DNA of 64,000 nucleotides. It comes from a virus. Lineage: Duplodnaviria > Caudoviricetes. Shown piece by piece: positions 2,267-17,964 of this stretch (positions are counted from its first letter, which is position 1; each line of letters starts with the position of its first letter). The stretch lies in IMG/VR virus record IMGVR_UViG_3300040811_001959; one strand, written 5' to 3'. A model generated the notes under the pieces. That model made no database searches. It was not told the origin of the DNA and worked only from the letters and a program-made list of their open reading frames with translations. The position numbers and the translations under genes are program-made.

Positions 2267-2374
2267 AAAAAAATCCTCTTTAGAATATTTATCGTGTAAT
2301 GTTGGTAAATATATTTGACATTTGAAAGCAAATGTTATATATTAATTTTTTTTACACACACAGAGGAGTACAAC

Positions 2375-2674: not shown

Positions 2675-2742
2675 GTTGTAACCAGAAGCCCTAAATAGGA
2701 AACGAGAGCATAGCTCGGGAAATATAAATTTAGCCAAAAAAG

Positions 2743-2803: not shown

Positions 2804-2812
2804 TTAACCTTT

Positions 2813-2968
2813 TTAAATCTTCAAATATATATCTAATAGAATTGCAAAAAATATTTGTACAAAGAAAAGTATAAAAAGTGTACTGAGAAATTTTCTTGTA
2901 GCACATCCTTTACACACGTCTTTAATCAATCTAATATCGTCTTTTAATTTATCGTACAAAGGCGGCAT
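2813..2968 (-). CDS. Small membrane protein (51 aa)
   Basis: ATG overlaps the upstream TAA; one hydrophobic C-terminal helix. Confidence 0.4.
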   Translation of the reverse strand: MPPLYDKLKDDIRLIKDVCKGCATRKFLSTLFILFFVQIFFAILLDIYLKI

Positions 2969-3432
2969 TAGCTTATTATCACACCATGTGATGATAAAAT
3001 AATCCAAGTTTGATTTGTATATAACAAACTTACCGTATCTCCTACCGCATTAAAAGCGATATTAGTTGCTCCAGCAAAAGTTGCTGTTAAATTAACTGTA
3101 TTGTTCTGATAGTTCGTCATAGTGATTACTTTGTATTGACCGTTACTTCCATTTGCCAATGTTACTGTCAATTCACCTGAAGTAGATCCAGTTAGATGTG
3201 TAACGGTTTGAGTAATTGAGCAATCGGCTTTACTATCGCCTGCAGAATCAACTCCGTCGTTAAATGCGATAAAAGATTTAATATTTTTAAAAATATCTTG
3301 CACTGCAATATTAGTAGTCATCCTATTAATATTTCCTTCGCCGTCGTCATCTCGGGCCACGAGCACTAATAAATCATCAGCAGTAAGATTTGGACCTCTG
3401 TAGGGTAGTTCTGAAATTTTTTTATCTGCCAT
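2968..3432 (-). CDS. Putative virion structural protein
   Basis: MADKKISEL..., LANGSNGQYKVI...GDTVSLLYTNQTW, a beta-rich phage structural style. Confidence 0.6.
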   Translation of the reverse strand: MADKKISELPYRGPNLTADDLLVLVARDDDGEGNINRMTTNIAVQDIFKNIKSFIAFNDGVDSAGDSKADCSITQTVTHLTGSTSGELTVTLANGSNGQYKVITMTNYQNNTVNLTATFAGATNIAFNAVGDTVSLLYTNQTWIILSSHGVIIS

Positions 3433-3439
3433 ATTTTAC

Positions 3440-3595
3440 CTATAATGTTTCAATAAAATTTTCATCGTGCTGATGGGGTAAGCCTTTTGCACAAAAATCG
3501 CAATGATTAGAAACTGTATTATTTCTCTTAATATTACGAGCTTTTTTTATTTTCTTTTCTCTAAGTTTTTGTTTTTGCATTTTTTTCTTTGTCAT
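3440..3595 (-). CDS. Small basic protein with CxxC/HxH motif (51 aa)
   Basis: MTKKKMQKQKLREKK...HCDFCAKGLPHQH; AAGGA RBS and TAAATA at 3611-3616. Confidence 0.5.
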   Translation of the reverse strand: MTKKKMQKQKLREKKIKKARNIKRNNTVSNHCDFCAKGLPHQHDENFIETL

Positions 3596-3613: not shown

Positions 3614-4339
3614 TTATTTAGGAGTATAGATAACGCCATTAATCATGTACTTAGAATCATACCAATCAAAGTCAGTGCTTGCATGAAGTAATGAACACGG
3701 AAATAAATGAATAGCTCCTATTTCCCATTCGCCTAATGTATCTACTTCAAGGCCATACAACTGCTCAGGTGAAATATGAGATATATGTGGATATTTAGGT
3801 AAAAAATTGCTTATCGGTTTTTTTAAATTATTTTTTAAGGATACTAAATGGGTAATACTTACAGATTTTAATTTTCCTGCAGGTCCTTCAGGAATCTCTA
3901 CTTTAAAATCAAATTTTGATTCTCTGCGATAAAATCGATTGTCTGGCATTAATTTATCAAAATAACATGTAGGTGATGCATTAGTCAAAGGTATTAGAAA
4001 TCTACATATTGGATTATGAATTTTTCTAAAACCACCATCACTGTCGCTATGGACACTATGAGTTGCTGCACCTAAATGTTGTAAGCTTGCATATAAGACA
4101 AGGTTAAAATTAGGAATATCAAATTTTTTTAATAATTTTTGGAAAATATTTTTAAAATTGAAATTGAAACTAAGTTGGTCAAATTCTATTTTATTTACTA
4201 ATTTATTATTATTGTCTGCCAAAGGAGGATAATGATTTTCTGTAAATAAATTTTTTGTTACTTTGGCAGGACAATAGGTAGCACAAAAATTTTCTAAATC
4301 TATTTTCTGAAAATCAGTAATGATTACACGGTTTAACAT
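3614..4339 (-). CDS. Putative 2OG-Fe(II)/cupin-fold oxygenase
   Basis: VHSD...FLIPL...GAIHLFPCSLLHAS gives an HxD...H pattern. Confidence 0.55.
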   Translation of the reverse strand: MLNRVIITDFQKIDLENFCATYCPAKVTKNLFTENHYPPLADNNNKLVNKIEFDQLSFNFNFKNIFQKLLKKFDIPNFNLVLYASLQHLGAATHSVHSDSDGGFRKIHNPICRFLIPLTNASPTCYFDKLMPDNRFYRRESKFDFKVEIPEGPAGKLKSVSITHLVSLKNNLKKPISNFLPKYPHISHISPEQLYGLEVDTLGEWEIGAIHLFPCSLLHASTDFDWYDSKYMINGVIYTPK

Positions 4340-5471
4340 AATCTATACCATATAAACTACCTACCAAACTTATGAAGTCTTGTTTTCGGTGTTGTTTAAT
4401 TAAATTGTAATAATCAAAAATTTTTTGTTTCATTTCAAGACTATTTTCATCTGCAAGAGCATTTTTTACAATAGGAAACCAACGTGCCTCAATTATATTT
4501 TTAATATCATTTAATATTAAAAATTTTAGGTGTTCTTGCAAAATTCCAGGGTTACTATAGCCTTTACTTGTAGAACTTTCATGTGTTGCTACATTGATAC
4601 AATAAGGATAATTATATTTTTTACAATATATTAAAAAATGTTTTAAACCTATTGCACTAAAACTGCTCAAGGTAAAATTTAGTGTAAATTTAAATTTATT
4701 TCTTTGTAAAGCAGCAAAATCATTTATTTTTTTTATATTTCTATCAACAATACACCATTTTGCTGGAAACCTTACAAATTCAAATACCTCATCTATTCCA
4801 TCAACACTAATAACAAAATTTACAGATTTAAATTTAATCATATTATTTAAATGATAATCTTTTATAAAAGTTCCATTTGAAACTAATTGTAAATTAACAT
4901 TTTTTAGGCAATCTGCATCAAAATTATCAAGATAACTCCAAAACTTTTTTGCTAGCATTGGCTCACCACCATACAATTCTAAAGTTTTATTTGATGTAGG
5001 ATTAGTTTTGATAAATTTTGTTAAAATGGCTTCTATTTCTTCTTTTTTAAAATAATTGGTTTTGCTTTTTTGTAAATTACGCATCAACGAAAATGACTGA
5101 ACATCTTCATTCCATTTTGTTGAATAATCTGGGCTGCACATGATACATTTTAAATTACAGATATTGCTTAATTTTATTTGTAGATGAGTTGGAAATTCAG
5201 TTGCTTCTTTATAAAATTTATTAGTAGTTATCTCATTTAGCCTTTTTGATTGTCCTATTTTTTTGTCTCTATTATAACACAACGTACAATCTTCTATTGG
5301 TATATTATCCAAGTTTTTTTTCCTAATAGCATCTAATGTATCAGCTTTCCAAAAATCTAAAAAATTATGATTAGGATAATTATACTGTTTGCTACTAACA
5401 CAGCATAATTTAAAATTATTTGGATTTAATTCAACTGAATAAAATGGAACAGGACAATAAGTTTTATTCAT
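4314..5471 (-). CDS. Radical SAM protein with N-terminal Twitch/SPASM-like Cys motif
   Basis: CNLKCIMC (CX3CX2C), YGGEP, SNGT; N-terminal YCPVPF...LCC...CTLCY. Confidence 0.9.
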   Translation of the reverse strand: MNKTYCPVPFYSVELNPNNFKLCCVSSKQYNYPNHNFLDFWKADTLDAIRKKNLDNIPIEDCTLCYNRDKKIGQSKRLNEITTNKFYKEATEFPTHLQIKLSNICNLKCIMCSPDYSTKWNEDVQSFSLMRNLQKSKTNYFKKEEIEAILTKFIKTNPTSNKTLELYGGEPMLAKKFWSYLDNFDADCLKNVNLQLVSNGTFIKDYHLNNMIKFKSVNFVISVDGIDEVFEFVRFPAKWCIVDRNIKKINDFAALQRNKFKFTLNFTLSSFSAIGLKHFLIYCKKYNYPYCINVATHESSTSKGYSNPGILQEHLKFLILNDIKNIIEARWFPIVKNALADENSLEMKQKIFDYYNLIKQHRKQDFISLVGSLYGIDYVKPCNHY

Positions 5472-6255
5472 CTAACTTACCACAAATTAAAAATCTAAAT
5501 ACATATTTTGAAGTAATCTTTGAATATCCTTGGGTACAATGTGCCTGATAAGGATTAAAAGTAACTAAATCTCCTAACTGCATTTGATAAATGTTTTCAA
5601 TATGTAATCCTGTCTCCATACCAGGAATGGCCAAAATATGATTCCAGCTATCGTCATCTCCTATCCAAGGATCGGTATTTTTTGGTAATGCATTAAAAAA
5701 TTTATCAAAAAAATCAAAATTATCATAATTGGTTTTTCCATAGAAATCTTCTTGAAATTCTACTCCGCCATAACTATATTCGTAATGTTCTTTGAAAGTT
5801 ATTAAAGTTGAAGAGATTGTGTCTGTTGATAATTCTTCTGTATCAAATGCTAATGGTATTACGCCTATTTTTAAAACACAAAATTCTCTTTCATCATTTG
5901 GATAAAAAGGAAAATGACCATCAATGTGAGGTCTTGTAGGTTCTGGAATAAAACAAACATTACAATTATCAATATGTATTGTTAATGGAAATTTATAATA
6001 ATCTAGTAATTTTTTCTTTAAATTTTCTATTAACTTTTGATTATTGTACAATCTTAATGTAGGAAATCTTCCTTTGATATCATTTTCACAATTTTTTGGC
6101 ATTGTTTGCCATATTTCGAGTAATTCTTTTGAAGAAAGAAAAGATTTTTGAAAAATATTAATTTTATTAGAATATTCTAGTAGGTATTTCTTATGTAAGT
6201 TAATATCATTTTTGCTGATATTGTGTTTTTGGGACCATTGATTGATTTTTTCCAT
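5464..6255 (-). CDS. Putative 2OG-Fe(II)-fold oxygenase
   Basis: RPHIDG...VIPL...GDLVTFNPYQAHCT; paralogous layout to 3614..4339. Confidence 0.55.
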   Translation of the reverse strand: MEKINQWSQKHNISKNDINLHKKYLLEYSNKINIFQKSFLSSKELLEIWQTMPKNCENDIKGRFPTLRLYNNQKLIENLKKKLLDYYKFPLTIHIDNCNVCFIPEPTRPHIDGHFPFYPNDEREFCVLKIGVIPLAFDTEELSTDTISSTLITFKEHYEYSYGGVEFQEDFYGKTNYDNFDFFDKFFNALPKNTDPWIGDDDSWNHILAIPGMETGLHIENIYQMQLGDLVTFNPYQAHCTQGYSKITSKYVFRFLICGKLDE

Positions 6256-7117
6256 TTAAAATACCTTTAAGAATTTTAATTACTTTGATTGGATCAATCT
6301 CTACAAATTCTACTGTATCAGATTGAAAATTATGATGCAACAAATGCCCTATTTGGGTAGGATTTGTTATTGTACTCCATAAAACTACACCAGGCGTAGG
6401 CGATATTTTGTTGCAAGCCATATGCTGTATACAACTATCTATAGATATAAATGAGCTGCAATTATTTACTAACTCTTGAATTGTTAATAAAGGTTCATCT
6501 TCAACCGTGCAAATTCTATCCAACGTGTCAATTCTTGGATCATACTTATCGTTTTTTACCTTTACACACATAAAAAAATAATCTGGAAAAGCATCATGGA
6601 TAGCTTTAATAAAATCATATTCTTTTCTATAATTTCTAAATACCATTATATCATGTCTATCCTCTCCGTTATTAGTATTTCCGCCTTTTAATTGAAATAT
6701 GATATACTTTTTTCCTATTTTTTTTGTAACCTGTTCATAAAATGTACGGGCTGTTTCATCTGTGTAAATTTCTACAAAATCTTGATAGTTTTCAATATCT
6801 AAATTCAAACCTTTTCTCCAACTAGTCAATATATGCTCATCTTCAAATAAGTAATCAGATCTGTAAGGTTCAAAATAAGTTATACTGGTAAAATAATTCT
6901 TCATTACCGTAACATTTGGCAAGGCCATACTTAGAGAAGATGCAACAAGTGGATGATTTATAAATAAATTAGGGTATGGTGAACTAATAGAAATTTTTGA
7001 TTCATGACGATTATAGAGATCTTTTATTAAATTGCTAAACAAAACACACTTGCCTACACCATTCTGTATCATGTACAAAGGTGTTTTATTTTCAGGAAAT
7101 ATTTGTGGAATAATCAT
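6206..7117 (-). CDS. Glycosyltransferase, GT9 (heptosyltransferase)-like
   Basis: NGVGKCVLFS...PYPNLFINHP...FISIDSCIQHMA...VVLW...GHLLH, a GT9-like pattern. Confidence 0.75.
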   Translation of the reverse strand: MIIPQIFPENKTPLYMIQNGVGKCVLFSNLIKDLYNRHESKISISSPYPNLFINHPLVASSLSMALPNVTVMKNYFTSITYFEPYRSDYLFEDEHILTSWRKGLNLDIENYQDFVEIYTDETARTFYEQVTKKIGKKYIIFQLKGGNTNNGEDRHDIMVFRNYRKEYDFIKAIHDAFPDYFFMCVKVKNDKYDPRIDTLDRICTVEDEPLLTIQELVNNCSSFISIDSCIQHMACNKISPTPGVVLWSTITNPTQIGHLLHHNFQSDTVEFVEIDPIKVIKILKGILNGKNQSMVPKTQYQQK

Positions 7118-7119
7118 AA

Positions 7120-7761
7120 CTATCTAAATTTTGGACCTCCGTACCAGCAAATAAAAGCTCTGCGTGTACCAGCTGTTATTTTATTCACTTTATGGATTGC
7201 AAATGTTGGAAATAAAAGCACACTACCTTGAAGCTTTACATTGTTCGGTTGTGCAATATTTAAATGTTCTTCTACAATGGTCTCACCTCCATCATAATCT
7301 TCTTCGTTTGATAACTGAATTATAAAAGTTAATTTTCTATCATGATGATGATTATCCCAATGATTTGTATCATCGTGTGTATCAAACCAATCATCAATAT
7401 CATATTGCATCAATTGTTTAGATAAGCAGCCATAACTTATATCTAGATGAAAACAATCTCTGTTAGCCATTAAAGCAATTTTATCTAATTTTGCATCTAA
7501 CCAATCAATCTCATTTTCCAAGAACATGTGTTTCCTAGACCTTTTTTCTCTAAAATATTTATACCACGGACTTTCTTCGTTATTTACTATTTCTATGAAA
7601 ACATCTTCATTTTTCCAATATGACCAAATTTTATCACATTCTTCTTTTGTAAAAATATTTTCTTTAAAATAGTAAGGTTGTCTACTACCGTTTGAATCAG
7701 AAAAAACTCTTTGCTTTGTTTCTTTTGAAGCTTTTGCTATGTCATTAGGTTCATATATCAT
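7120..7761 (-). CDS. 2OG-Fe(II) oxygenase (P4H/PKHD-like), intact active site
   Basis: THDD...RKLTFIIQLS...YDGGE...FPTFAIHKV..IT.GTR. Confidence 0.9.
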   Translation of the reverse strand: MIYEPNDIAKASKETKQRVFSDSNGSRQPYYFKENIFTKEECDKIWSYWKNEDVFIEIVNNEESPWYKYFREKRSRKHMFLENEIDWLDAKLDKIALMANRDCFHLDISYGCLSKQLMQYDIDDWFDTHDDTNHWDNHHHDRKLTFIIQLSNEEDYDGGETIVEEHLNIAQPNNVKLQGSVLLFPTFAIHKVNKITAGTRRAFICWYGGPKFR

Positions 7762-8384
7762 CTAAATTTTGGTCCAATAATATGAGAGATTAATATATAC
7801 TTCGTTCCTTTTGTAATAGGAGCAATCTTGTAAAAATAATAAGCAGGTAATATACATAAAGATCCCTGTGAAAGAAATTTTTGCGGAATAGGAACTGTGC
7901 TATGAAATTCAACAATTTCACCTCCTACAATATCTTCGTCATTTAAAAATAATAAAAGACTCAACTTATTATCGTAAGGTTTTTCATTGTTCCACCACTC
8001 GCAATCATGGTGCCAATTTATAAACTGGTCTTTTTCAAATTTACACAGATATAGGTTTTCTACATTCATAAGATCTAGCATAAAATTTTTATTGGCATCT
8101 GCGCCAACTTCGTTGAAAATTTTTTCTAAAAATTTATAATCTTCTGGGAAAAAATTTTTCTTTAGTGAGATAGAAAAGAAATTACCAAAATCGTTATTGA
8201 TATGATTATATCCGCCTTTTTCAAATTTGGTTATTATCTCTTTACAAGCGTTTTCACTAAAAAGTTTTTCATAAATTACAAATGGAGATTTTTTGTAATT
8301 TATAGGAGAATAATCAGTTACCTTGCCAAATATAGGAGGGTAAGGCGATCCTGGTTCTCTTGCATCTTGAATATTTACACCCAT
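7758..8384 (-). CDS. 2OG-Fe(II) oxygenase-like protein, distal His absent
   Basis: WHHD...KLSLLLFLND...GGE...LPAYYFYKIAPITKGTK, with Tyr where the distal His is expected. Confidence 0.8.
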   Translation of the reverse strand: MGVNIQDAREPGSPYPPIFGKVTDYSPINYKKSPFVIYEKLFSENACKEIITKFEKGGYNHINNDFGNFFSISLKKNFFPEDYKFLEKIFNEVGADANKNFMLDLMNVENLYLCKFEKDQFINWHHDCEWWNNEKPYDNKLSLLLFLNDEDIVGGEIVEFHSTVPIPQKFLSQGSLCILPAYYFYKIAPITKGTKYILISHIIGPKFR

Positions 8385-9718
8385 GACGGTCTCCGTATAT
8401 CTCCTTGAATATCAACAACTTTTTTTCCTGTTAATAGTTTTATAGCTCCAAACATAATTCCTAAATTATAGGCATACTCATTCCAGCAAGTTTGAGCAAA
8501 CTCTTTTCCAGTAAGAAACATACAGGACCCTTTGCATAATTGTAAAACAGGACAATGTGTACATTCGTTTCTCCAGGACCAATGCCTGCTAGATTTAATT
8601 CTAACGGCATCAAAATTGTCAAGATGACCAGCAAGGTGTTTGTTTTCCAAACCTACATTTTGGCATGTGAGTACATTACCTTTTAAATCTAGAGCTAGTT
8701 CATCGTCTTGATCCATTCCACATTTTTGCCCAAGAAACTCTGCATCTTTTTTATATAATAAAGAACCATACCATTCGTTAATTTTTTCTACAATACCTAC
8801 AACTTGTAATAATGGTTGCTTACCTTCTACTATCCCGTTGTATATTTTTTCTCTAAAATCATAAACATACTTTTGATCAAATTTTCCAGTTTTATCATTT
8901 AGTGCAGTTTTTAAATCGTAGGCTTCGACAACTCCTTCACAATTAATATTAACATCGGTTCCAAATTTATCTCTAAACCATTTTACAGTTTGATCGTAAT
9001 CATCATTTTCTTTTGTCCAAACAATTGAAAAAGCAAACCCAAGTTCTTGTTTTTTATCAGCTTCTATTAATTGTTTTACAAATTCAAACTTTTTAGGATT
9101 ATCTAATGGATCAGGCCCTCTAAGATGATATCCGGGTCCGTCATGTGACATTGCTAAATTAAATCTATATTTTTTAAAAAAATCAATTTTTTCTTGTGTT
9201 AACAAACTTCCATTTGTAACCATCGTAAATTCAATATCTTCATCACATTTTTCTTTTAAAAAAGGTACTAATTTTTTTATTTTTTTCCAATAAAGTAGCG
9301 GCTCGCCGCCCCAAAGTTCCACCATTGTACAAGATGATAAATCAATACTATTTTCTAAATTATGCATAAAAACATCTGTATCATTTTCATCTGTACGAGA
9401 TGCAGCAGGAACAAAAGATGCTTGACTACAATATTCACATTTATAATTACATTTTAATCCCAACTGAATTTTAATTCTACTTGGGTTTTTTAATTTTTTT
9501 CCAGGATTAAAAAAAGGATGAATAGGATTTACATTAGTTTGATGAGGATAATCTTTAGGACTATATACATACATTTCATTGATTTTTTCAATACCGATTG
9601 GATTTTTTTCATATAAATTTTGACCGTCGGCATTAGTAAGTAAACTTTTATATGGATAATAAAAAAATTCTTCCCCGTCGTCGCAAATTAGTGTATAAAC
9701 AAGATTTTTATTTTTCAT
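8375..9718 (-). CDS. Radical SAM/SPASM domain protein
   Basis: CNYKCEYC, WGGEP, VTNG, SHDG; SPASM CG...GNVLTC...CTHCPVLQLCKGSC...C. Confidence 0.93.
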   Translation of the reverse strand: MKNKNLVYTLICDDGEEFFYYPYKSLLTNADGQNLYEKNPIGIEKINEMYVYSPKDYPHQTNVNPIHPFFNPGKKLKNPSRIKIQLGLKCNYKCEYCSQASFVPAASRTDENDTDVFMHNLENSIDLSSCTMVELWGGEPLLYWKKIKKLVPFLKEKCDEDIEFTMVTNGSLLTQEKIDFFKKYRFNLAMSHDGPGYHLRGPDPLDNPKKFEFVKQLIEADKKQELGFAFSIVWTKENDDYDQTVKWFRDKFGTDVNINCEGVVEAYDLKTALNDKTGKFDQKYVYDFREKIYNGIVEGKQPLLQVVGIVEKINEWYGSLLYKKDAEFLGQKCGMDQDDELALDLKGNVLTCQNVGLENKHLAGHLDNFDAVRIKSSRHWSWRNECTHCPVLQLCKGSCMFLTGKEFAQTCWNEYAYNLGIMFGAIKLLTGKKVVDIQGDIRRPSWV

Positions 9719-9873
9719 TCTATAATCCTATAAACGTAAGAAATTCGAGAATCAACTGAATATGCATGAGTGCATATAATTTTCTTTGTACTAGTTAATG
9801 TTGACTCGTACTCTCTATTGTTTTTTTGCGTAAAATTAATTTTACATTTTTTATATTTTAGAAGCAAGCTCAT
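9715..9873 (-). CDS. Possible small hypothetical protein
   Basis: Fills the gap in the operon; the track's start (9951) overlaps the upstream gene by about 100 nt, so the later ATG was chosen. Confidence 0.3.
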   Translation of the reverse strand: MSLLLKYKKCKINFTQKNNREYESTLTSTKKIICTHAYSVDSRISYVYRIIE

Positions 9874-11500
9874 ATTTTTGTTGATATAATTGAATTGTAA
9901 GACTATTTGATAACAATTGTTCTTTAAACTGCTGGAATAAATCTTTGGCAATTAGATAATTTTCTTCACTACAAAAATCTAATACATCATTGTTTTGTAA
10001 TAATTCTTTTCTTTTTTCAATATCATAAAGTTTATTATGAAAAACAGGAACCAAAAAATCATATTCATTAATAAAATTAAAAAGTTTATTTTCGGTATGG
10101 TAATAGACATGAAAAAAACGCCAGTAATTTATTTTAAAAGACATTGTTTCGTCTATTCCTGTTGTAATTTCAGTAGAATTTGGATTATATATATTTTTAC
10201 AATCTTTCCAAAAATTAGCAGAATTATTAGTCCAAGTATATAATAAAGACAAATCTGAAATTTCTTTAAAAAAATTAGAGTAAGTTTCATTAAATTCTAA
10301 AGTTTTCAACATCAATGTTTCTTCATCTATACTAAAACAATCATCTTCCGTGTCGTTATCGCTTTCAATTAAAATATTAATTAGCGATTCTATCTGTTTT
10401 ACAATTAGATTTAAGGGATCAATAAAAATAGGTTCAATAATCGATGAAGCATTACCTAACGCTATGCAATTTTTGTTAAGAATTTTATCTATTGATCCTA
10501 TGTTTAAATCTATAATTTGATATTTCTCAATTTTCAAATTAAGATGATTTTCTAACTCTGACAGCGCATCTTCGTCACTGATATAATTTTGTGCATAAAC
10601 ATAAGAATACCTTGTGCAGTTTTGTAATGGAATTTGATATACATAACCTGCTGATAAAGGATAAAAATCTTTCCAAATTTTTTCTAATGCAATATCACTT
10701 TCATATGAAATTACTTTATTCACTTTATGCGTAGGAAATAACCAAAAATTATAAAAAGAAAAATTTGTAACAACATCTCTATGAATTCCTGTGCAATCTA
10801 TAACAAAATCACAGTCATAAACATCATTTGTTCCTTTAACTTGGATAATAGTTTCGTCTTCTTCTTGAATTAGTTGTTGGTAATAATCGTCTATTACCTC
10901 AACATCTTGCTGTAAAGCTAATCTTTTAATATATGGCAATAGTTTTTCACTTGTGTAGGTGATTGCAATTGATCTGTCTTTATTGTCAAATAAATTCATT
11001 AAACTAGCAATATCTAAATCTGGAATTTTATCTTCGGTAAAAAATGATGTAATTTCTGAAAAATTAATTTTTTTTTCGTCATTTAATAGTCTATTAAGAT
11101 AGGATCGTTTCCATGTCTTATTAAACTTCTCGACTTCATCATTTGGATCTATTTCATCTTGATCAGCGTTGTCTTCAGTTTTTTCTGGCCAATGAATTTC
11201 ATCAATTTTCATAAAATTCATAGAATTACTATGTACAAAAATTTCGTCTGTAGTATTCCAATTATTATACCTTGACCCAAAGTTAATAACTCCTTGGGTT
11301 TCTTGGAATAAGTCTTTTATGTCTAAATATTCAATTAAGTTTTTTGTAAGGTATAAAGTTCCTTCTTGTATATCATTACCTTCAAGAATAGGCTGATTTA
11401 TAATTTTAATTTCAAGAAATGGTAATTGCGTTTTTAATATATAAGCGGTTAACCAACCTTCAAGACCTGATCCAACAATAATGATCTTTTTTAATCTCAT
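9851..11500 (-). CDS. Flavin-dependent oxidoreductase, tryptophan-halogenase fold
   Basis: IVGSGLEG (GxGxxG), FVIDCTG, GNASSIIEP. Halogenase-specific Lys and WxWxIP appear replaced. Confidence 0.8.
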   Translation of the reverse strand: MRLKKIIIVGSGLEGWLTAYILKTQLPFLEIKIINQPILEGNDIQEGTLYLTKNLIEYLDIKDLFQETQGVINFGSRYNNWNTTDEIFVHSNSMNFMKIDEIHWPEKTEDNADQDEIDPNDEVEKFNKTWKRSYLNRLLNDEKKINFSEITSFFTEDKIPDLDIASLMNLFDNKDRSIAITYTSEKLLPYIKRLALQQDVEVIDDYYQQLIQEEDETIIQVKGTNDVYDCDFVIDCTGIHRDVVTNFSFYNFWLFPTHKVNKVISYESDIALEKIWKDFYPLSAGYVYQIPLQNCTRYSYVYAQNYISDEDALSELENHLNLKIEKYQIIDLNIGSIDKILNKNCIALGNASSIIEPIFIDPLNLIVKQIESLINILIESDNDTEDDCFSIDEETLMLKTLEFNETYSNFFKEISDLSLLYTWTNNSANFWKDCKNIYNPNSTEITTGIDETMSFKINYWRFFHVYYHTENKLFNFINEYDFLVPVFHNKLYDIEKRKELLQNNDVLDFCSEENYLIAKDLFQQFKEQLLSNSLTIQLYQQKYELASKI

Positions 11501-12198
11501 GCTTCCTCAATTTTTTGTATTATATCGTTGATATCCTTCAATGAATGTGATATCGGTACGTTTGATAATTTATTATGTAGATTCAAATTATTTTTCTTTA
11601 TATCAGTATTATCATTTTTTAAAAGTCTAGTCATATTAATTTTATTTCTTACCTTATTATAAAACATTACAAGGAAAATAGGATAGTATGTCATATTTTT
11701 ACAAAAAAAAGCTTCTTGCTGGAAAAATAAAAAATCACCAGGATTAACAACACATTTTGAAATATTTTTATTATCACTGGTATAATATATAGATTCTATA
11801 TTTAAAGGAACTAGACAAAAATTATCAGAATATTTTAAAAGTTTTGTTTTTCTAAACCTTTCCGGAGTAACTATATTTTTAATACCATTGTCAATATAAT
11901 CTAGACTTGTTGATAAATCAAGAAATTGGATATCTTCTAAATATATGTCAGTATTAATTTGCAAAATATTATTGTAAATGGTTCTAATGATATCAATTAT
12001 AGGATCAATACAAAAAATAATTGAATAACTATTTGTTTCTGTAATTTTTCTGACAATACCATTAGCAAGTAGTCGCACGTCATCTAATTCCTGTTGAATT
12101 CTATGTTTATTAAAATCATGAACTGACCTTATTATATCAAAAAAATATTTAAGACGTGTTACATCTTTTTTAGATAACAATTGTTTTTCATATAGCAT
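11497..12198 (-). CDS. Hypothetical protein (possible degenerate oxygenase fold)
   Basis: 233 aa, 4-nt overlap in the operon; VNPGDFLFF resembles a cupin/DSBH strand. Confidence 0.55.
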   Translation of the reverse strand: MLYEKQLLSKKDVTRLKYFFDIIRSVHDFNKHRIQQELDDVRLLANGIVRKITETNSYSIIFCIDPIIDIIRTIYNNILQINTDIYLEDIQFLDLSTSLDYIDNGIKNIVTPERFRKTKLLKYSDNFCLVPLNIESIYYTSDNKNISKCVVNPGDFLFFQQEAFFCKNMTYYPIFLVMFYNKVRNKINMTRLLKNDNTDIKKNNLNLHNKLSNVPISHSLKDINDIIQKIEEA

Positions 12199-13855
12199 TA
12201 TTACTTGCCCTTAATCGTTTGAATGGAACATGTTCTATATAAGTTTCAAAGTATTCTCCATTTTTTGATGTAATTTGTCCTACATTACCATAGTTCGGAG
12301 TCTCTAAAATTAATAAATTTAAAAATTCATCAAAAGTAAAATAGCCATTAAAGTAAAAATTTTCTTTTACATTAATTTCAAGATATAATGCTAACCTATC
12401 AAACACGTTGCTGCTTGAAAAATCAAAATCAAATGCAGTAATGTTACCAAGTTGAGCTGCTAAAATTATATAATCAATTACACTATTTGGGTCTTTGTCG
12501 TAGGAATTGCCAAAAGTAATTTCATTATTAAAATCTGTACTAAAACTAGGTACTTTATCATTAAAATTAGTTTTTAATGTATCTGGTGTATTATTAAAAA
12601 TTCCATAACCTTGCAAATTGTTATCCTGCAATAAATAAAAACTAAATTTCTTAAGATTTTTGTTAAAATTTTCCCATTTATGTTGAAGTGAATCAATGTA
12701 TTGATATAAATTTGCTGGATCGATTATGGAAGAATTAATCGTTGATACAATTGTATCTATATAAATATTAGCTGCCACTAACTCTTCGTTAAATATAGGA
12801 TTCAAACCTAATTTTTCTAAATTAAATTCTATATAATTAGAATGATTTAGATCATTAATTAAAAAATTATTTTGAAGTGTATTAATATTATTGACATTAT
12901 TGCTAAATGATATTTTTTTTGCATAATCTTGATATTTTAAAATTTTAACAAATTTATTATCTAAAAGCTGGTTATTATAGATTGCTGGTTCAAGAAAATC
13001 AATTTGTTCATCTTCATAACCAGAAAAAATTATTGTAGGATTTGTAGTAGTAAGTTCTTTATCACTTTCTATAAAATTATTAAAAAATAGATTATTTATA
13101 CCTGTATTAATCACCAAATCTACATTAAAAGATTGACTACTAGTCGTAATTTGTGTTATATTTTTTTTATTTTTTCCATCTAATACTGGTAGGATTTCAG
13201 TTGATCCATCTACTATATTATCAGTTATAATGTCTAACCCTAATTCTGATATTTTGTTATCTAGAAGAAGAGCAAGATTATCTAAATCATAACATCCTGG
13301 CATTCTAAACCATAAAGGACCTGCAGATCCTTCGGTTAGAAATTTGCCGGTGAGATGATATAAATTATCATTATTTTTATATAAATCATATGGAAAGATT
13401 GTAAGCACATCAAGGATATTTTTATTTTTTTGTAGTAGATATTCTATAAAAGCTTGATATTTTCTTTCTGTTGAATCAAATTTTAAAAAATCATATTTTG
13501 TACAATAATAGTTTAATAAACTAAATTGTAACTGTGTCATCCTAGCTGGTAATATTATCTCATTTTCTATTATACCTTCAAAAGAAATTCCATGCCCGAC
13601 TGTGCTCTTTGTTTGTGTAAAAATCTCTGCAACGCTTATATTACAATGTTTAAAAAACAACGAAGGAAAGGAATATTGTTCAGCTACAGGTAGATATTGA
13701 TTTGAAATTATTTGTGTTCTGAAACTTTCATTATTAGTAAATAATATTGGATTACTTTGCGGATTATTTATCTTCAAGGATAATGCAATCACCTTTGCAG
13801 CAAATGTATTTCCTAATACTGCAATATTTTTTATTGCCATTTTGATCCTATACAA
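12188..13855 (-). CDS. Degenerate tryptophan-halogenase-fold protein
   Basis: IKNIAVLGNTFAA (broken GxGxxG), TKSTVGHGISF, VDLVINTG; size and layout similar to 9851..11500. Confidence 0.55.
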   Translation of the reverse strand: MYRIKMAIKNIAVLGNTFAAKVIALSLKINNPQSNPILFTNNESFRTQIISNQYLPVAEQYSFPSLFFKHCNISVAEIFTQTKSTVGHGISFEGIIENEIILPARMTQLQFSLLNYYCTKYDFLKFDSTERKYQAFIEYLLQKNKNILDVLTIFPYDLYKNNDNLYHLTGKFLTEGSAGPLWFRMPGCYDLDNLALLLDNKISELGLDIITDNIVDGSTEILPVLDGKNKKNITQITTSSQSFNVDLVINTGINNLFFNNFIESDKELTTTNPTIIFSGYEDEQIDFLEPAIYNNQLLDNKFVKILKYQDYAKKISFSNNVNNINTLQNNFLINDLNHSNYIEFNLEKLGLNPIFNEELVAANIYIDTIVSTINSSIIDPANLYQYIDSLQHKWENFNKNLKKFSFYLLQDNNLQGYGIFNNTPDTLKTNFNDKVPSFSTDFNNEITFGNSYDKDPNSVIDYIILAAQLGNITAFDFDFSSSNVFDRLALYLEINVKENFYFNGYFTFDEFLNLLILETPNYGNVGQITSKNGEYFETYIEHVPFKRLRASNNAI

Positions 13856-14379
13856 AATGCAAACAAGTATTTTAATTGTGGTACAGAAACAGTATCAATT
13901 ATATATTTTTGAAAGCTGTTAAATACTACAATGGCACCAGTTTTTTGATAAAAAATCTTATCAATCTCACTTTGACTTCCATTAGGTGCGATTAGTTTAA
14001 TTTTTCCACCAGCAATATCTGGATCAAAAGGAGGATTTAAATTTATGATAGCTACAAGTTTTCTATCATAATAATTCTGCACCCAATGGTTTAATTCCAT
14101 TCGTTCTGAAAATGATCCGTCTTTTGAATATGATTCTAATCTAATTGCATCGATGCTATTAATTGAATAACCAAAATTATTATTATTTGCTTTTTGGAAA
14201 TAATAATAAATTGCATCTTCTATATCAGAAATGTAACCACCACCGTACCATTTGACATCTACATTTTTACCTTTACCACTAGATAGATTACTTTTAACTT
14301 GTAAATTTTCAATAATATTTAGAAATTCTGGTACTACATTTTCAACAGCACCAGGAAAGGTTATATGATCGTAAAGCAT
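13831..14379 (-). CDS. 2OG-Fe(II) oxygenase-fold protein lacking HxD/H
   Basis: YDRKLVAIINL...GGKI...GAIVVFNSF...IGSKW frame; metal ligands not present. Confidence 0.7.
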   Translation of the reverse strand: MLYDHITFPGAVENVVPEFLNIIENLQVKSNLSSGKGKNVDVKWYGGGYISDIEDAIYYYFQKANNNNFGYSINSIDAIRLESYSKDGSFSERMELNHWVQNYYDRKLVAIINLNPPFDPDIAGGKIKLIAPNGSQSEIDKIFYQKTGAIVVFNSFQKYIIDTVSVPQLKYLFAFCIGSKWQ

Positions 14380-14384
14380 AATAT

Positions 14385-14972
14385 TTATTTCAATTTAGGA
14401 CCTACAATATCGAATGTAAGAACTTGCATAGCTCCTTGTAATAATGGATTTATTTTTATAGGTACAAAAGATGGATAAATTAACAAATTACCTTGCTCAT
14501 TATAATATTTAGGTAGTGATATGCCATATAAAGGGTCTACTAAGAATTGCCCACCTTCATATTTTTGTTTATCACTTAGAAAAACATAACCAGTTAGTTT
14601 TTGGTCACAGGACTCATTTGAAAAAAAATCTAATCTTGAATGGTATCCGTACTCACAACCTTGCTGGAAGGTTATTAATCTTGGATCGTTTTCAAATCCC
14701 CAAATTTCATATCCATAATTTCTAGTATTGCAATCAAAAATATATTTTAATATTTTTTCTTCTAAATGCAGTTGATTTTCAATTGTGTAAGACTCAAAGT
14801 TTTGTTTAGGTGTTCTCGGATTTGTAACTGGATTGGGTTCTATGTTGACAATATCATTGTCGATTTGCAATTCGCAAATTTCAGCGCATTCGTCGCTATA
14901 GAATATTTTAGGATATATAGTAAAACATTCTTTTTTAAGAAGAGAAGAATAGTCATATTCCATTATATTCAT
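14385..14972 (-). CDS. 2OG-Fe(II) oxygenase-fold protein, degenerate triad
   Basis: GYHSR...KLTGYVFLS..YEGGQF...GNLLIYPSF...GPKLK; Asp and distal His missing. Confidence 0.75.
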   Translation of the reverse strand: MNIMEYDYSSLLKKECFTIYPKIFYSDECAEICELQIDNDIVNIEPNPVTNPRTPKQNFESYTIENQLHLEEKILKYIFDCNTRNYGYEIWGFENDPRLITFQQGCEYGYHSRLDFFSNESCDQKLTGYVFLSDKQKYEGGQFLVDPLYGISLPKYYNEQGNLLIYPSFVPIKINPLLQGAMQVLTFDIVGPKLK

Positions 14973-14987
14973 TATAACTCTTTATGT

Positions 14988-15695
14988 TTATAGGTTTTCT
15001 ATTTTTTCTAATAAAATCGGAATTTGTTCAATGTAAATTAAACCCTTTAATTTATTTCCGTCTTTTTCTAGAATATTTATTAGGTCTGGTAAAATATTTT
15101 CTGCCTCTTGAGCAAATTGATCTAGCAAAACTTTTTCATCGTCAGTAATATCATTGTCATTTTCTATCAAACTTTCAATATCAAGCCCTTTATCTATATA
15201 ATCTATTATAATCTCTTGTAAAGATTTTAATTTTTCTACGCTAAGTTGATCTATAATAAATCCATCGGAGTCTTTTCCTAAATTAAATGAACATTTACAT
15301 TTACCACACCAACATTTACAAGCACATTTGCATTTACATTGGCACTTGCATGCACATTTGCATTTACATTGGCACTTGCATGCACAAAGGCACTTGCACT
15401 TACACTTGCACTTGCATTTGCATTTGCACTGGCACTTGCATTTGCAATTGCAGTTGGTTGTATATTCTATCCTTAGTGTACCTTCTGATCCTGCTACATT
15501 ATTCCGTATTTGATAAATTTTGTTAATAGCAGCGCCGGTAAATGGACCATTGCTAGGAGTTGGAACTAGAGACACTCCATTTAATAACCAACTTGGACTC
15601 ACAAAAGAAGCAGGAATAGTTGTAGGATCTACATTACTAATATCAATTTTATCTGCCGGATCACCTACAACGGTATTTCCAATTTTTAATGCCAT
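14988..15695 (-). CDS. Poly-(Cys-X) repeat protein, putative virion/tail-tip protein or RiPP-like substrate
   Basis: About 81-aa N-terminal domain, a 54-aa tract with 27 Cys (25 consecutive CX, mostly CK), then an acidic C-terminal domain; TAAATA promoter at 15714-15719. Confidence 0.8.
   Translation of the reverse strand: MALKIGNTVVGDPADKIDISNVDPTTIPASFVSPSWLLNGVSLVPTPSNGPFTGAAINKIYQIRNNVAGSEGTLRIEYTTNCNCKCKCQCKCKCKCKCKCKCLCACKCQCKCKCACKCQCKCKCACKCWCGKCKCSFNLGKDSDGFIIDQLSVEKLKSLQEIIIDYIDKGLDIESLIENDNDITDDEKVLLDQFAQEAENILPDLINILEKDGNKLKGLIYIEQIPILLEKIENL
15291..15452 (-). repeat. Low-complexity TGY-NNN (Cys-X) coding repeat with a 30-nt tandem duplication
   Basis: tgtgcatgcaagtgccaatgtaaatgcaaa occurs twice (CACKCQCKCK). 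Synonymous TGT/TGC and AAA/AAG variation points to selection on the protein. Confidence 0.9.
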
Positions 15696-15713
15696 TATAA
15701 CCTCTGTTTGAAT

Positions 15714-15719
15714 TATTTA
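15714..15719 (-). promoter_or_regulatory. T4-type late promoter core (TAAATA) heading the Cys-repeat/modification operon
   Basis: The same hexamer lies about 5-30 nt upstream of at least 12 structural or late genes in this window. Confidence 0.7.
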
Positions 15720-15729
15720 TCTTTATGAT

Positions 15730-16326
15730 TTATGAGACCGTGATATAACTATTCACTGGATAGCTACATTGACAAGAATCCTCGACAGTAGTATCGTCGT
15801 AATAAGCTCCACTTCCACGATTATATGAACATACCATAGCACAATAGTAATTTGCAGTACCTATACAACAGCAAACTAAACAATTATTAACTATTGCAAA
15901 ACAAATTTGATTTGTGTATCCGCCTAATGTCCATCTGACGCCGGCTGTAACATCAAAGCATGTAAGGGTTCCTTGTGTAGCAGGTATATTACTACTGGGT
16001 TGCACATATGATCCGTAAGACGTAGTATTTGCACACATAAAAAAATCGCTGCCTTTACCAACATAAACATTAGTCACTGTATCAGCCCATGAGTCAAAAT
16101 CTCCACAAAAAATATCTAACAAAGTATATGTTCCTTGTGGATTTGAAAAAAAAGTTAAATCAGTTTCGGGATCTAATCCTAACACCCGTTGGCATGCCGC
16201 AATGCTTGGATTACAAACTATCAATTGTCCTGTTGTATGTTGCTTTCCTGGTGCTTGTGCGTTCCTTTCCGCTTGGGTGAGTCCTGCTTCTAAAATTATT
16301 ATCTTATCTCTAATTCTAAATGCCAA
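15730..16326 (-). CDS. Cys-rich putative virion protein
   Basis: 198 aa, 14 Cys including CLVCCC and CQC; MAFRI N-terminus like its neighbours. Confidence 0.7.
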   Translation of the reverse strand: MAFRIRDKIIILEAGLTQAERNAQAPGKQHTTGQLIVCNPSIAACQRVLGLDPETDLTFFSNPQGTYTLLDIFCGDFDSWADTVTNVYVGKGSDFFMCANTTSYGSYVQPSSNIPATQGTLTCFDVTAGVRWTLGGYTNQICFAIVNNCLVCCCIGTANYYCAMVCSYNRGSGAYYDDTTVEDSCQCSYPVNSYITVS

Positions 16327-16327
16327 T

Positions 16328-16771
16328 TTAATCTCCTATATAAACATACTTCACACTAGAATCTCCGTTGTAGTCACAAAATTTAATTAAATTTGCACAG
16401 CCTACCATATATGAATCATATACACACCTACTATAGTAATAAGGATTTTGGACAGTATTATAATATGGTGGTCCTGTGTGTTTAGGAGTCCGGGTATCAC
16501 AATACCTATGGCTATTTGCAACAGAAGAATGCGACCCTAATAAGAACGCTCTCCTGGATAGTCCGCATTTATCAATCGCAGTTCCTGTTGTGCTCCTAGT
16601 CCCTGAGGCTAAATAGGCAATAACTTTTGGACAGCGTAACCATACTTGATTATCGGTAAATGATGTGTTAGAATTCATTCCTTGCCCATACGGAACAATG
16701 GTATCTTTAAAATCTATTGATGTTGTTAAACCTACTGCATCTACAAGGACGCCGTTAATATAAAAAGCCAT
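16328..16771 (-). CDS. Putative virion protein
   Basis: 147 aa, MAFYING N-terminus, 6 Cys, Tyr-rich; AGGAGA RBS. Confidence 0.65.
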   Translation of the reverse strand: MAFYINGVLVDAVGLTTSIDFKDTIVPYGQGMNSNTSFTDNQVWLRCPKVIAYLASGTRSTTGTAIDKCGLSRRAFLLGSHSSVANSHRYCDTRTPKHTGPPYYNTVQNPYYYSRCVYDSYMVGCANLIKFCDYNGDSSVKYVYIGD

Positions 16772-17964
16772 TATGGTATTACCTTAAGTTTCAAACTACC
16801 AACATTTGAAAATGATTTAAAGCCAATTTTGATTTCTACATCGTCACCTACTTCTAAATCAAGCGCTCTATATAAAAATCTACCCCTACCGTTTTTTACA
16901 TTACATTTACGTTTACTCAAATAGCCTGCATTGGCCGAAACGTAAAAGTCAATATCTTTTTGAATTATATAGTGATCTGAAATTGTACCTTCTTTATCGC
17001 TTAAATTAGTAGGTGTTAAAATTTTAAGATCAGTCGTATTTAGATCCTCCAAGCAAAGTTTACTATCTATATGTTCATATGTAATTTTATCAGCATCTTC
17101 CGTAAGCAGAACTTCTTCATTATCATATAGACTTACATTGACTAAAATGACATCATCTTTAGATATTTCAAGAGGAGCGTGTAATTGAATTTTAGGTAAA
17201 GGAAGCTCTGCATAACTAGTAAGTAAAGGAAAAACATAAGCAAAGTTTGCCCCGCCGATTTCATTTGTACCTAATTTAAAATCAAAATGAAATTCTCCGT
17301 GACATCTAACGTAATAACTACATTCTGTAAAATCATCGTCTTTATCTAGTATGAAAATAGAAAAAAGTCTTTTCCTAAATTCGCCGCTAGTCCAGAAAGA
17401 TGCGCCCTCTGGTGTTGTCCTTATTAATTTTGGAGCTGTTACATAAGAACTATTAAGTTCATGCCTAACAAAAGGCGACTTTGTTATTACAGAATCAAAT
17501 AGGATATTTTTAGGATAAAACCAATTCATACCGTCAAAATTAAAATCAAACGCCCATAAGGCGCAATCGGACCATTCAACAAAAGTATTTTTATCAAATC
17601 CAACATTTTTATCAAACCCTCTATCATAGGTTGTTGTTCTTGTCAGTATTGAAATGTTACCATCTTGATCAAAAGCTCTGCGAATTTGTGCTCCGCCAAA
17701 ATACCTAAAATATTTTGACTGCACTGATGGTTCATAGAAAATTGAACCAGAAACCACCGACTCTAAGAAATTTGCATCCATATCAATATTATGATCTTGT
17801 AAGAACGAAACTCCATCTTTATTATCTATGAATAGTATGTTTTCTGGCAATTCATCATAGATTTCTTCATGAAAGGCTTTAATTGTAATTGTATTGGTAT
17901 CTACTTCTATTTTAAGAAATAAATTATCTAATAAATCATTTGTGGCCCTAAAATATTGTCGCAT
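16771..17964 (-). CDS. Hypothetical protein with C-terminal Ig-like beta domain; candidate chaperone for the Cys-rich tail proteins
   Basis: 397 aa, translationally coupled to the tail-fibre gene; ends AGYLSKRKCNVKNGRGRF...LEVGDDVEIKIGFK. Confidence 0.65.
   Translation of the reverse strand: MRQYFRATNDLLDNLFLKIEVDTNTITIKAFHEEIYDELPENILFIDNKDGVSFLQDHNIDMDANFLESVVSGSIFYEPSVQSKYFRYFGGAQIRRAFDQDGNISILTRTTTYDRGFDKNVGFDKNTFVEWSDCALWAFDFNFDGMNWFYPKNILFDSVITKSPFVRHELNSSYVTAPKLIRTTPEGASFWTSGEFRKRLFSIFILDKDDDFTECSYYVRCHGEFHFDFKLGTNEIGGANFAYVFPLLTSYAELPLPKIQLHAPLEISKDDVILVNVSLYDNEEVLLTEDADKITYEHIDSKLCLEDLNTTDLKILTPTNLSDKEGTISDHYIIQKDIDFYVSANAGYLSKRKCNVKNGRGRFLYRALDLEVGDDVEIKIGFKSFSNVGSLKLKVIP

Follow-up and report, generated by a model that had tools for sequence, protein, structure and literature searches.

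Radical S-adenosylmethionine (SAM) enzymes that carry a SPASM domain are known to mature Cys-rich substrates. The closest described systems are CteB/CteA (SCIFF, PDB 5WGG) and PapB/PapA (freyrasin, NF047865), whose substrates end in a core rich in Cys, where Asn or Asp often stands beside Cys, a feature shared with the tails described below. Precedents for SPASM enzymes acting on Cys in proteins are QhpD, which cross-links Cys to Asp or Glu in the QhpC subunit of quinohemoprotein amine dehydrogenase, and anSME, which converts Cys or Ser to formylglycine in sulfatases. To our knowledge, no radical SAM modification of a virus particle has been described, and full-text literature searches turned up no article in which phage fibres are modified by radical SAM enzymes. 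Here we analysed IMG/VR virus record IMGVR_UViG_3300040811_001959 (Duplodnaviria; Caudoviricetes), a stretch of 64,000 nucleotides (nt) referred to below as the window. It encodes a radical SAM/SPASM enzyme (8375-9718) and, in the same block of minus-strand genes, a protein with a long run of alternating cysteines (the CX protein, 14988-15695).

The enzyme shares the CX3CX2C motif and a seven-Cys SPASM domain with CteB and PapB. Unlike the short secreted peptides of those systems, the candidate substrates here are fibre-type proteins of 55-480 amino acids, some with a Peptidase_S74 (S74) or Hint domain. Their cysteines recur with a period of two, and they lie in tail-fibre modules together with a beta-sandwich accessory protein. 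It also differs from QhpD and anSME, the scores for which fall under the curated cutoffs, in that its setting is a virion fibre.

On the side of the virion, S74 domains of endosialidases and of T5 pb1 fold the trimeric segment that precedes them and then cut themselves off (PMC4690869). A domain of this kind follows the tract in two homologues of the CX protein and, in diverged form, in the window. The known S74 fibres, such as K1F endosialidase and T5 pb1, are not known to have a Cys-X tract or dedicated modifying enzymes. The 'cysteine annulus' of the P22 tailspike illustrates that C-terminal Cys can matter for adhesin assembly (PMC3357383); unlike the system of the window, it involves transient disulfides and no enzyme. 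Arrays of tandem dioxygenases and Trp-halogenases were described in the cyanophage Syn9 (gp49-gp58) by Iyer, Abhiman, de Souza and Aravind in 2010, who proposed metabolite synthesis (PMC2938197). Like the window, such arrays combine distantly related 2-oxoglutarate (2OG) oxygenases with two Trp-halogenase homologues in one co-directional block, but the cyanophage arrays have neither a radical SAM/SPASM enzyme nor a CX protein, whereas the block of the window is tied to a candidate substrate.

Our analysis shows that the genes for the radical SAM/SPASM enzyme and for fibre proteins with Cys-X tails at their (mature) C-termini form a conserved partnership. While maturation of Cys-rich substrates by such enzymes is known, its proposed application to virion fibre proteins is new here. 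We propose that the enzyme probably modifies the Cys tail of a fibre tip, and that in the lineage of the window this tail has been expanded and further decorated by a block of enzymes that is exchanged as a cassette.

Radical SAM/SPASM enzyme

A sequence-only reading of the window, made from its letters and open reading frames (ORFs), had called a radical SAM/SPASM enzyme in the block. The CX3CX2C motif and all seven SPASM cysteines are indeed present.

8375..9718, minus strand: radical SAM/SPASM enzyme, 447 amino acids, PF04055 at 1.8e-13; core maturase candidate

The CX3CX2C motif reads CNYKCEYC. Across 56 diverse homologues its C90, C94 and C97 do not vary, and the SPASM residues C333, G347, C352, C386, C389, C395, C399 and C411 are invariant or nearly so. 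All 10 cluster cysteines are invariant in this set, and so is a family-specific motif, SHDGPG..RGPDP. The AlphaFold2 (AF2) model had a predicted local distance difference test (pLDDT) value of 90.7, and its best structural matches were CteB (Z 23.6, with 364 residues aligned, the N-terminal domain included) and anSME (Z 21.8), followed by ChlB (Z 21.3) and TigE (Z 18.3). A sequence profile search agreed with these matches (anSME, E 1e-14). As modelled, the enzyme is structurally akin to maturases that modify Cys in peptides and proteins.

The leading NCBIfam matches were PapB, HxsB, CcpM and the SCIFF maturase, every one of them far under its cutoff. PapB (NF047865) scored 67.8 bits against a cutoff of 340, QhpD (TIGR03906) 58 against 453 and anSME (TIGR03942) 53.9 against 349, which places the enzyme outside these families. 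The sulfatase motif C/S-x-P/A-x-R is absent from the N-C-N-C-(X-C)n tracts described below. The maturase of CXXX-repeat peptides (TIGR04115) was outside the best 25 of 60 NCBIfam hits, and the Cys period of the tracts is two. In PHROGs the clade corresponds to phrog_1802 (8e-56), which has no function label. A predicted complex of the enzyme with residues 1-140 of the CX protein scored 0.00 with a partner pLDDT of ~35, and is evidence neither way.

Cys-X tails accompany the enzyme across tailed phages

In a profile scan, the enzyme had at least 514 relatives in IMG/VR, and species-representative bacterial genomes contributed 107. The loci analysed were the best 80 from IMG/VR together with earlier viral and isolate loci (88 in total), and the best 80 of the 107 genome relatives. 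The latter are mostly from Burkholderiales, Rhizobiales and Limnohabitans and are taken to be prophages. The hosts of the family are mostly aerobic Proteobacteria, and marine phages carry it as well.

An N(CX)n tract was encoded on the strand of the enzyme, within ~3 kb, at 66 of the 88 viral and isolate loci and at 54 of the 80 genome loci (120/168 in total). Tracts on the opposite strand numbered three and six, respectively. The usual position of the tract is 0.2-2.9 kb upstream of the enzyme gene. Tract-bearing ORFs made up 125 of 6081 in the enzyme loci vs 3 of 2701 in unrelated control viral loci. Co-occurrence of Cys-X proteins with homologues of 8375-9718, which the sequence-only reading had suggested examining, was found. 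The signal is spread over the family: at least one tract-bearing locus was present in 37 of 55 enzyme clusters at 70% identity and in 18 of 28 at 55%.

In 91 cases the tract is the extreme C-terminus of its protein. Otherwise it is followed by a Hint-like or an S74 domain, or in a few cases by a domain of 170 amino acids with the motif 'SKIIC..KL'. The small carriers are 55-110 amino acids long and share the N-terminus MAYKVGTTIVIDD..DWSRI, and the other carriers are genuine fibres; the carrier at locus L144, for instance, matches tail-fibre PHROGs at 3e-14. The X positions of 84 distinct tracts from outside the window lineage are occupied by Asn (53%), Ala (18%) and Asp (11%), with Lys at 0 of 288 positions. 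These tracts contain 2-8 Cys (usually 3-6, mode 4), apart from one with 12, vs 27 Cys and mostly Lys at X in the window.

Among isolated phages, a tblastn search yielded one homologue from Achromobacter phage JWF and one from Ralstonia phage RSP15, at 37-39% identity; each is encoded within a tail-fibre module. The JWF enzyme (gp030) is encoded two genes past gp028, the record of which cites a fibre domain of T4 gp36. In gp028 an NCNCDCNCNCS tract ends the body of the protein and a Hint domain follows directly (PF05203, 3e-12, beginning at the next Cys). In RSP15 the enzyme (gp045) is encoded three genes past the 'side tail fiber' gp048, which has the C-terminus ...NCQCGN.

Three side observations concern the carriers. 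JWF gp028 (L099, record 29502-30953) also matches Shufflon_N (PF04917, 5.3e-07, residues 178-251), which we take to be the constant region of shufflon proteins, variable adhesins at the tip of type IV pili. A sub-family has an internal NCNC tract followed by the domain of ~170 amino acids, which starts with SKIIC.KL..(G/L)M (L005:7888-8793 and loci L006, L152, L158, L161, L162, L166, L177, L196 and L209). This domain had no match in Pfam, NCBIfam or PHROGs; its position could suit a third type of domain, next to S74 and Hint, that removes itself or acts as an anchor. A distant lineage (L010:7192-7941 and L010:9004-11236, also L011 and L012) encodes a fibre-like protein ending in ...CSYCSYCSYCCRDCCDDC next to two adjoining radical SAM genes, a homologue of the accessory protein and a protein of 305 amino acids with 15 Cys; the N-terminus encoded by the next gene resembles, by eye, those of tail-collar-type fibres.

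Neither the small NCNC-tailed proteins nor the CX protein belong to a family in Pfam, NCBIfam or PHROGs. For the NCNC-tailed fibre class there is no curated family match here and no paper was found.

The small carriers could also be read as peptides or toxins of the type that is made by ribosomes and modified post-translationally (RiPP), released or kept inside the cell and not part of the virion. Their length and C-terminal Cys core do resemble a leader-core precursor, and the enzyme resembles RiPP maturases. Against this, the same tail is found on proteins with fibre domains or annotations (JWF gp028, RSP15 gp048 and the carriers at L144 and L176), self-cleaving S74 or Hint domains can follow it, and the genes lie on one strand within tail-fibre modules. 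The features annotated in the JWF and RSP15 modules, and the ORFs that were inspected at ten viral loci, included neither a protease nor an exporter gene. The carriers, at 55-480 amino acids and in such modules, do not correspond to short leader-core precursors that are released free. We consider this explanation very improbable.

A second gene tends to accompany the pair of enzyme and tail.

16771..17964, minus strand: accessory protein (ACC), 397 amino acids, all-beta Ig-like sandwiches with a conserved C-terminal domain of ~80 amino acids

In iterative hidden Markov model searches, members of the ACC family were adjacent to the enzyme and co-directional with it in 50/91 viral and 45/80 genome loci. 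The gene, which the sequence-only reading had picked as a marker alongside the enzyme, is therefore a recurrent partner. Its AF2 model (pLDDT 71) matched only generic Ig-like beta-sandwiches in the PDB (TM ~0.2), and no family for it was found in Pfam, NCBIfam or PHROGs. Genes similar to 2OG-FeII_Oxy_5 recur between ACC and the enzyme in several lineages (62 bits in L005, under the cutoff in the others).

The CX protein of the window

The first gene of the block in the window encodes the candidate substrate.

14988..15695, minus strand: CX protein, 235 amino acids, with an N-terminal fibre-family domain (MALKIGNTVV...), a (Cys-X)27 tract and a diverged S74-type domain
15291..15452, minus strand: Cys-X tract, 54 residues with 27 Cys; also the left break-point of the cassette
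14991..15290, minus strand: C-terminal 100 amino acids, diverged homologue of the S74 intramolecular chaperone, with S-F-N-L-G-K in place of S-D-x-R-x-K

As the sequence-only reading had noted, the protein has 27 Cys, and every one of them falls in residues 82-135. The tract consists of 25 consecutive C-X dipeptides, from N-C-N-C-K-C on, followed by G-K-C-K-C. Its alternating Cys are kept in three diverged homologues, with 25-29 C-X pairs. The N-terminus, MALKIGNTVVGDP..., matches that of the small-protein family, MAYKVGTTIVIDD..DWSRI. By its sequence, the CX protein is an extreme member of the NCNC-tailed fibre class.

At the DNA level the tract is an imperfect tandem repeat of 6 and 30 nt, and (CK)n microsatellites are common in viral contigs, which might suggest a slippage-prone coding microsatellite without a function of its own. 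The codons are mixed, however (TGC 16, TGT 11, AAA 10, AAG 7), and the Cys alternation is kept in homologues at 42-74% identity, which argues for a feature at the protein level. The tract moreover opens with the family-wide N-C-N-C, and an independent metagenome contig spans it at unchanged length. A scan of IMG/VR for DNA coding for (CK)6 gave 77 stretches. Those within a real protein were confined to the four cassette-bearing contigs, and the remaining ones are short non-coding microsatellites. A plain microsatellite was rejected on the grounds of the mixed codons, the conserved alternation and the N-C-N-C start, and we regard it as exceedingly improbable.

The suggestion that the CX protein is a tail or receptor-binding component gained support from its C-terminus. 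In the homologues of the IMG/VR contigs L001 and L002, PF13884 follows the tract directly (50.6 bits, 2.5e-13 and 44.4 bits, 2.1e-11; cutoff 22), with the S74 domain starting ...CW|SD(G/E)(R/K)LK. The C-terminus of the window protein, with the tract excluded, is homologous to these S74 domains (BLASTP 3e-12 to L001 and 3e-13 to L002). The region of the Ser-Lys dyad reads SDGRLK in L001, SDEKLK in L002 and S-F-N-L-G-K in the window, where the distance from Ser to Lys is unchanged; L004 has no Ser. The CX protein is thus probably a small, trimeric virion protein of the fibre type. If its S74-type domain removed itself, the Cys tract would become the mature C-terminus.

The structure of the tract also admits a metal-thiolate needle, in which the beta strands of a trimer turn their thiols to the axis and bind metal or clusters of the Fe-S type. 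The radical SAM/SPASM enzyme would then serve cluster or metal loading, or some other task, and the tip would be metallothionein-like or a Cys counterpart of the HxH repeats of gp37; such a needle is compatible with covalent modification. Metallothioneins typically contain C-X-C motifs with Lys, and the HxH repeats of T4 gp37 are iron-binding. The gp37 tip likewise presents a period-2 repeat of metal ligands at the distal end of a trimeric fibre, although with His in place of Cys and no modifying enzyme, so that the likeness is one of analogy only. The strict period of two, the confinement of all 27 Cys to the tract and the S74 domain, an aid to trimeric fibres, directly after it speak for a needle. 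It leaves unexplained why an enzyme resembling CteB and anSME accompanies tails of 2-4 Cys in dozens of lineages, and why X is mostly Asn, Ala or Asp in these. Nor are we aware of any SPASM enzyme by which a structural protein is loaded with metals. Taken together, we find a metal needle rather improbable as the explanation.

One element of the sequence-only reading, a T4-type late promoter in front of the CX gene, was not borne out. The hexamer TAAATA does lie ~25 nt 5' of the gene, but TATAAATA was not enriched in the window (9 found vs 10.6 expected). Only ATAAATAA is present 5' of the CX gene, and a T4-type late operon is not supported. Scans of the window for sigma-70-like promoters and for terminators gave results at chance level.

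An exchangeable cassette with additional enzymes

The CX gene heads a run of 13 minus-strand ORFs from 15695 down to 3614, and the abutting arrangement, the AT-richness and the place below a long tail-fibre gene that had been described for this block all held. ORFs are spaced by -50 to +15 nt, save for one gap of 132 nt at 9719-9850. The GC content is 0.24-0.30 at 4-15 kb vs 0.34-0.45 in the rest of the window. The block adjoins a fibre region, with the fibre gene upstream. The other genes of this region and of the block are as follows:

17964..23168, minus strand: long tail fibre, 1734 amino acids, C-terminal Peptidase_S74 (PF13884, 1.2e-09, residues 1634-1694)
16328..16771, minus strand: small protein, 147 amino acids with 6 Cys, fibre-family N-terminus (MAFYING...)
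15730..16326, minus strand: Cys-rich protein, 198 amino acids with 14 Cys, including CLVCCC
14385..14972, minus strand: PKHD-type paralogue without HxD and distal His; hhalign 99.5% to the 7120-7761 family; weak match to phrog_61
13831..14379, minus strand: PKHD-type paralogue without metal ligands; hhalign 97.6%
12188..13855, minus strand: halogenase-fold paralogue; hhalign 97.5% to the 9851-11500 family over the N-terminal half; no GxGxxG in four lineages
11497..12198, minus strand: possible 2OG/HalD-like fold, 233 amino acids; Atlas feature score 0.93, TM 0.5-0.64, low-confidence model
9851..11500, minus strand: Trp-halogenase family, PF04820 at 6.9e-42 (144 bits, cutoff 21); PyrH and RebH in the PDB at ~1e-52
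9715..9873, minus strand: small ORF of ~52 amino acids (MSLLLK...HAYSVDSRISY), occupying the sole gap in the putative operon
7758..8384, minus strand: PKHD-type paralogue with HxD present, distal His and Arg lost; hhalign 99.5%
7120..7761, minus strand: intact PKHD/P4H-type 2OG-Fe(II) oxygenase, PF13640 at 1.2e-11; H129-x-D131, H190 and R200 invariant
6206..7117, minus strand: GT9-like (GT-B) glycosyltransferase fold; Atlas 0.98, TM 0.81 to phage clusters bearing PF01075
5464..6255, minus strand: 2OG-Fe(II) oxygenase fold; H110-x-D112, H239 and R254 in invariant columns; Atlas 0.95
4314..5471, minus strand: twitch radical SAM protein, NF033640 at 203.7 bits (cutoff 170), N-terminal Cys cluster; phrog_14086 at 7e-22
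3614..4339, minus strand: protein with a cupin/2OG-like motif, 241 amino acids; H97-x-D99 and H219 invariant; last gene of the cassette

The fold assignments of the sequence-only reading could be reproduced for these enzymes. They comprise two halogenase-fold proteins, four PKHD-type proteins (paralogous by hhalign at 97.6-99.5%), two divergent 2OG-fold proteins that keep HxD...H (5464-6255 and 3614-4339), a GT9-like protein and a radical SAM protein of the twitch type. Only 7120-7761 keeps HxD...H...R among the four PKHD paralogues. The halogenase homologue 9851-11500 retains GxGxxG (as GSGLEG), but its catalytic Lys (K79 of PrnA, K75 of PyrH) is replaced by Asn and WxWxIP reads YVYQIP (YxYxIP). 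With both of these lost, it was rejected as an active halogenase. The product of 6206-7117 had no direct Pfam match and no significant PDB profile match. The Atlas neighbours of 5464-6255 were DUF6445, 2OG-FeII_Oxy_3 and PhyH, and a PDB profile search with it gave nothing significant; 3614-4339 had no Pfam match and no significant PDB match. The invariant columns of 11497-12198 contain no His; its fold call, possibly a seventh of the 2OG-like kind but lacking ligands, is a weak lead. When 5464-6255, 3614-4339, RSP15 gp046 and JWF gp029 were used in iterative searches, matches came only from their own lineages, and these proteins are for that reason not considered core parts of the system.

The small ORF 9715-9873 begins inside the halogenase gene, at its 3' end, and extends to where the radical SAM gene starts. 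It has equivalents after the halogenase gene in L004, L001 and L002, with the motif (R/H)(G/A)YS.D.RISY, and is conserved but apparently without annotation.

In the IMG/VR contigs L001, L002/L003 and L004 the whole set, including the CX protein, is syntenic, with protein identities of 26-78%. The nucleotide identity between window and L004 is 93-100% at 1-3500 and 89-98% at 15501-20000, but 60-79% across 4.0-15.5 kb. The left break falls within the CX gene at the tract and the right break at ~3.6 kb, just past 3614-4339. Such a drop between near-identical flanks indicates that the chaperone half of the CX gene, with the S74-like domain in the 3' third, and the twelve genes downstream form one exchangeable allele. 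The block had been proposed to be one unit rather than a collection of loose auxiliary metabolic genes, and these sharp boundaries agree with that. By nucleotide alignment, the enzyme block is shown to be inherited as a cassette together with half of the CX gene.

Tract and enzymes may also vary together. In L001 and L002, the Lys, WxWxIP and GxGxxG of the halogenase are all kept and the mature tract ends in Trp. In the window the Lys is replaced by Asn and the tract Trp is internal, and in L004 GxGxxG is lost as well and the tract has no Trp. This co-variation of halogenase integrity with the tract Trp is suggestive; with four lineages it is anecdotal. Lys at X and the extra enzymes likewise coincide, as the window lineage alone has both.

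A narrower explanation would let only the radical SAM/SPASM enzyme and the accessory protein serve the tail and treat the other ~ten genes as a hypervariable auxiliary or host-directed island that happens to lie in the fibre region. For the dioxygenase and halogenase arrays of cyanophages, a role in small-molecule or cell-surface chemistry has been proposed. It would account for the absence of the extra enzymes from all other lineages of the family and for the loss of catalytic residues from several window copies. It would also be in line with the reading of the Syn9 arrays of tandem dioxygenases and Trp-halogenases as secondary-metabolite pathways (PMC2938197) and with the arrays of S-RIM44 and HTVC008M, which are without a CX protein. 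An island does not fit a divergent block that runs from inside the CX gene to past 3614-4339 as one unit with the chaperone half, nor overlapping genes whose order and content are kept in four contigs over deep divergence. The coincidence of Lys at X with the extra enzymes, and of Trp with halogenase integrity, also speaks against it. The cyanomyovirus arrays likewise stand directly after tail-fibre genes, which fits fibre modification at least as well as it fits metabolism. We therefore consider a separate island unlikely, although it deserves to be kept in view. For the proposal that the block is a pathway that matures a tail component, this leaves a divided result. The SPASM enzyme is tied to fibre Cys-X tails family-wide, while for the other enzymes the synteny is seen in one lineage only.

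In the T4-like cyanophage S-RIM44 (L261, NC_047734, record 101841-111059), two Trp-halogenase and several 2OG-oxygenase genes come directly after a tail-fibre gene of giant size. In between lie three paralogues rich in glycine, of which two carry the annotation 'tail fiber assembly'; these three may be the substrates of the array.

Neighbouring genes and distribution of the window

The long tail fibre 17964-23168 shares 33-37% identity at its C-terminus with Synechococcus phage tail fibres. The L004 counterparts of 16328-16771 and 15730-16326 are 89% and 85% identical, respectively. The former has no counterpart in L001 or L002, and the slot of the latter is taken there by other Cys-rich small proteins. 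These slots between the accessory and CX genes (L001:1313-3153 and L002:1982-2690) are lineage-specific in content, as exemplified by a protein of 433 amino acids with 28 Cys in L001, and all slot proteins begin with MAF(F/Y/K)(I/V)(G/N). The Cys-rich slot proteins may be further substrates or fibre subunits.

The window carries tail-fibre, virion, DNA polymerase, helicase and carbamoyltransferase genes and is part of a large phage contig. Its best matches come from marine cyanophages and phage HMO-2011. A megablast search of the block against GenBank phages gave no match, and the window is without a close GenBank relative. Its DNA was seen in estuary, seawater and salt-marsh metagenomes of 17 studies, and the comparison of such contigs with the window found this cassette allele in four separately filed runs (short 'joints' with sides of ~21 nt were disregarded).

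Two groups of tandem repeats were observed. Those at 44598-44747 and 45295-45679 are AT-rich, have periods of 43, 8/16/48 and 32/38 nt and coincide with no long ORFs; this cluster might act as an origin or in regulation. The tail-fibre-like gene 24771-26030 (minus strand) contains, at 24991-25202 and 25562-25682, repeats of 108 nt (2 copies) and 42 nt (2.9 copies), which suggests a recent repeat expansion in a second fibre protein.

Proposed maturation of the fibre tip

We hypothesize that the substrate of the radical SAM/SPASM enzyme is the Cys tail of a fibre protein. The N-C-N-C-(X-C)n tail would be either the encoded C-terminus or one exposed by a self-cleaving S74 or Hint domain. The likeliest products would be thioether (Cys S-C) cross-links, as with CteB, PapB and QhpD. 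This product is favoured because CteB is the nearest structure, PapB is the best NCBIfam match and Asn and Asp, which accept the thioether in NxxcB, PapB and QhpD, dominate the X positions. Alternatively, Cys might be oxidized as by anSME. Either product would yield a covalently stapled fibre tip that resists reduction. The usual companions of tail and enzyme would be the beta-sandwich accessory protein and one or more 2OG oxygenases. In the window lineage the tail would have grown five- to seven-fold and turned Lys-rich. Decorating enzymes would have been recruited to it, namely three apparently intact 2OG oxygenases, the GT9-like transferase, the twitch radical SAM protein and the flavoprotein-fold proteins. 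The cassette would then diversify a surface-exposed tip that faces the host. Its exchange between near-identical phages is what one would expect of a determinant that recognises the host or is exposed on the surface.

Several observations weigh against an enzyme-modified, further decorated tip. The reaction type of 8375-9718 is not assignable, because its scores are far under every curated maturase cutoff. No tract was found at 48 of the 168 loci, many of which are cut by contig ends; true absence is possible. The Pfam S74 model gave no hit on the C-terminus of the window CX protein, and with its cleavage motif altered, self-cleavage of this protein is uncertain. The extra enzymes are present only in the window lineage, so that their link to the tract amounts to one phylogenetic observation, and four or five of them look catalytically dead in the window. 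The dioxygenase and halogenase arrays that follow tail-fibre genes in cyanomyoviruses lack both the CX protein and the radical SAM enzyme.

As a more tentative extension, to which we give somewhat less than even credence, many tailed phages may have enzyme-stapled tips, with the accessory protein aiding the enzyme. In the lineage of the window these might be further hydroxylated, glycosylated or halogenated by the recombining cassette, giving chemical 'tip types' that set host recognition. We know of no enzyme-encoded chemical serotype of a phage receptor-binding part.

The enzyme family is large, and with JWF and RSP15 it has two sequenced isolates in which laboratory tests of the idea may be feasible. 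For the unexplained arrays of dioxygenases and halogenases that were noted in marine phages in 2010, the idea suggests a concrete class of candidate substrates. If true, it would matter for predicting host range, for fibre engineering and for how far RiPP-type enzymology extends into structural proteins. The receptor-binding structures of phages would then depend not on sequence alone but also on post-translational chemistry encoded by the phage.

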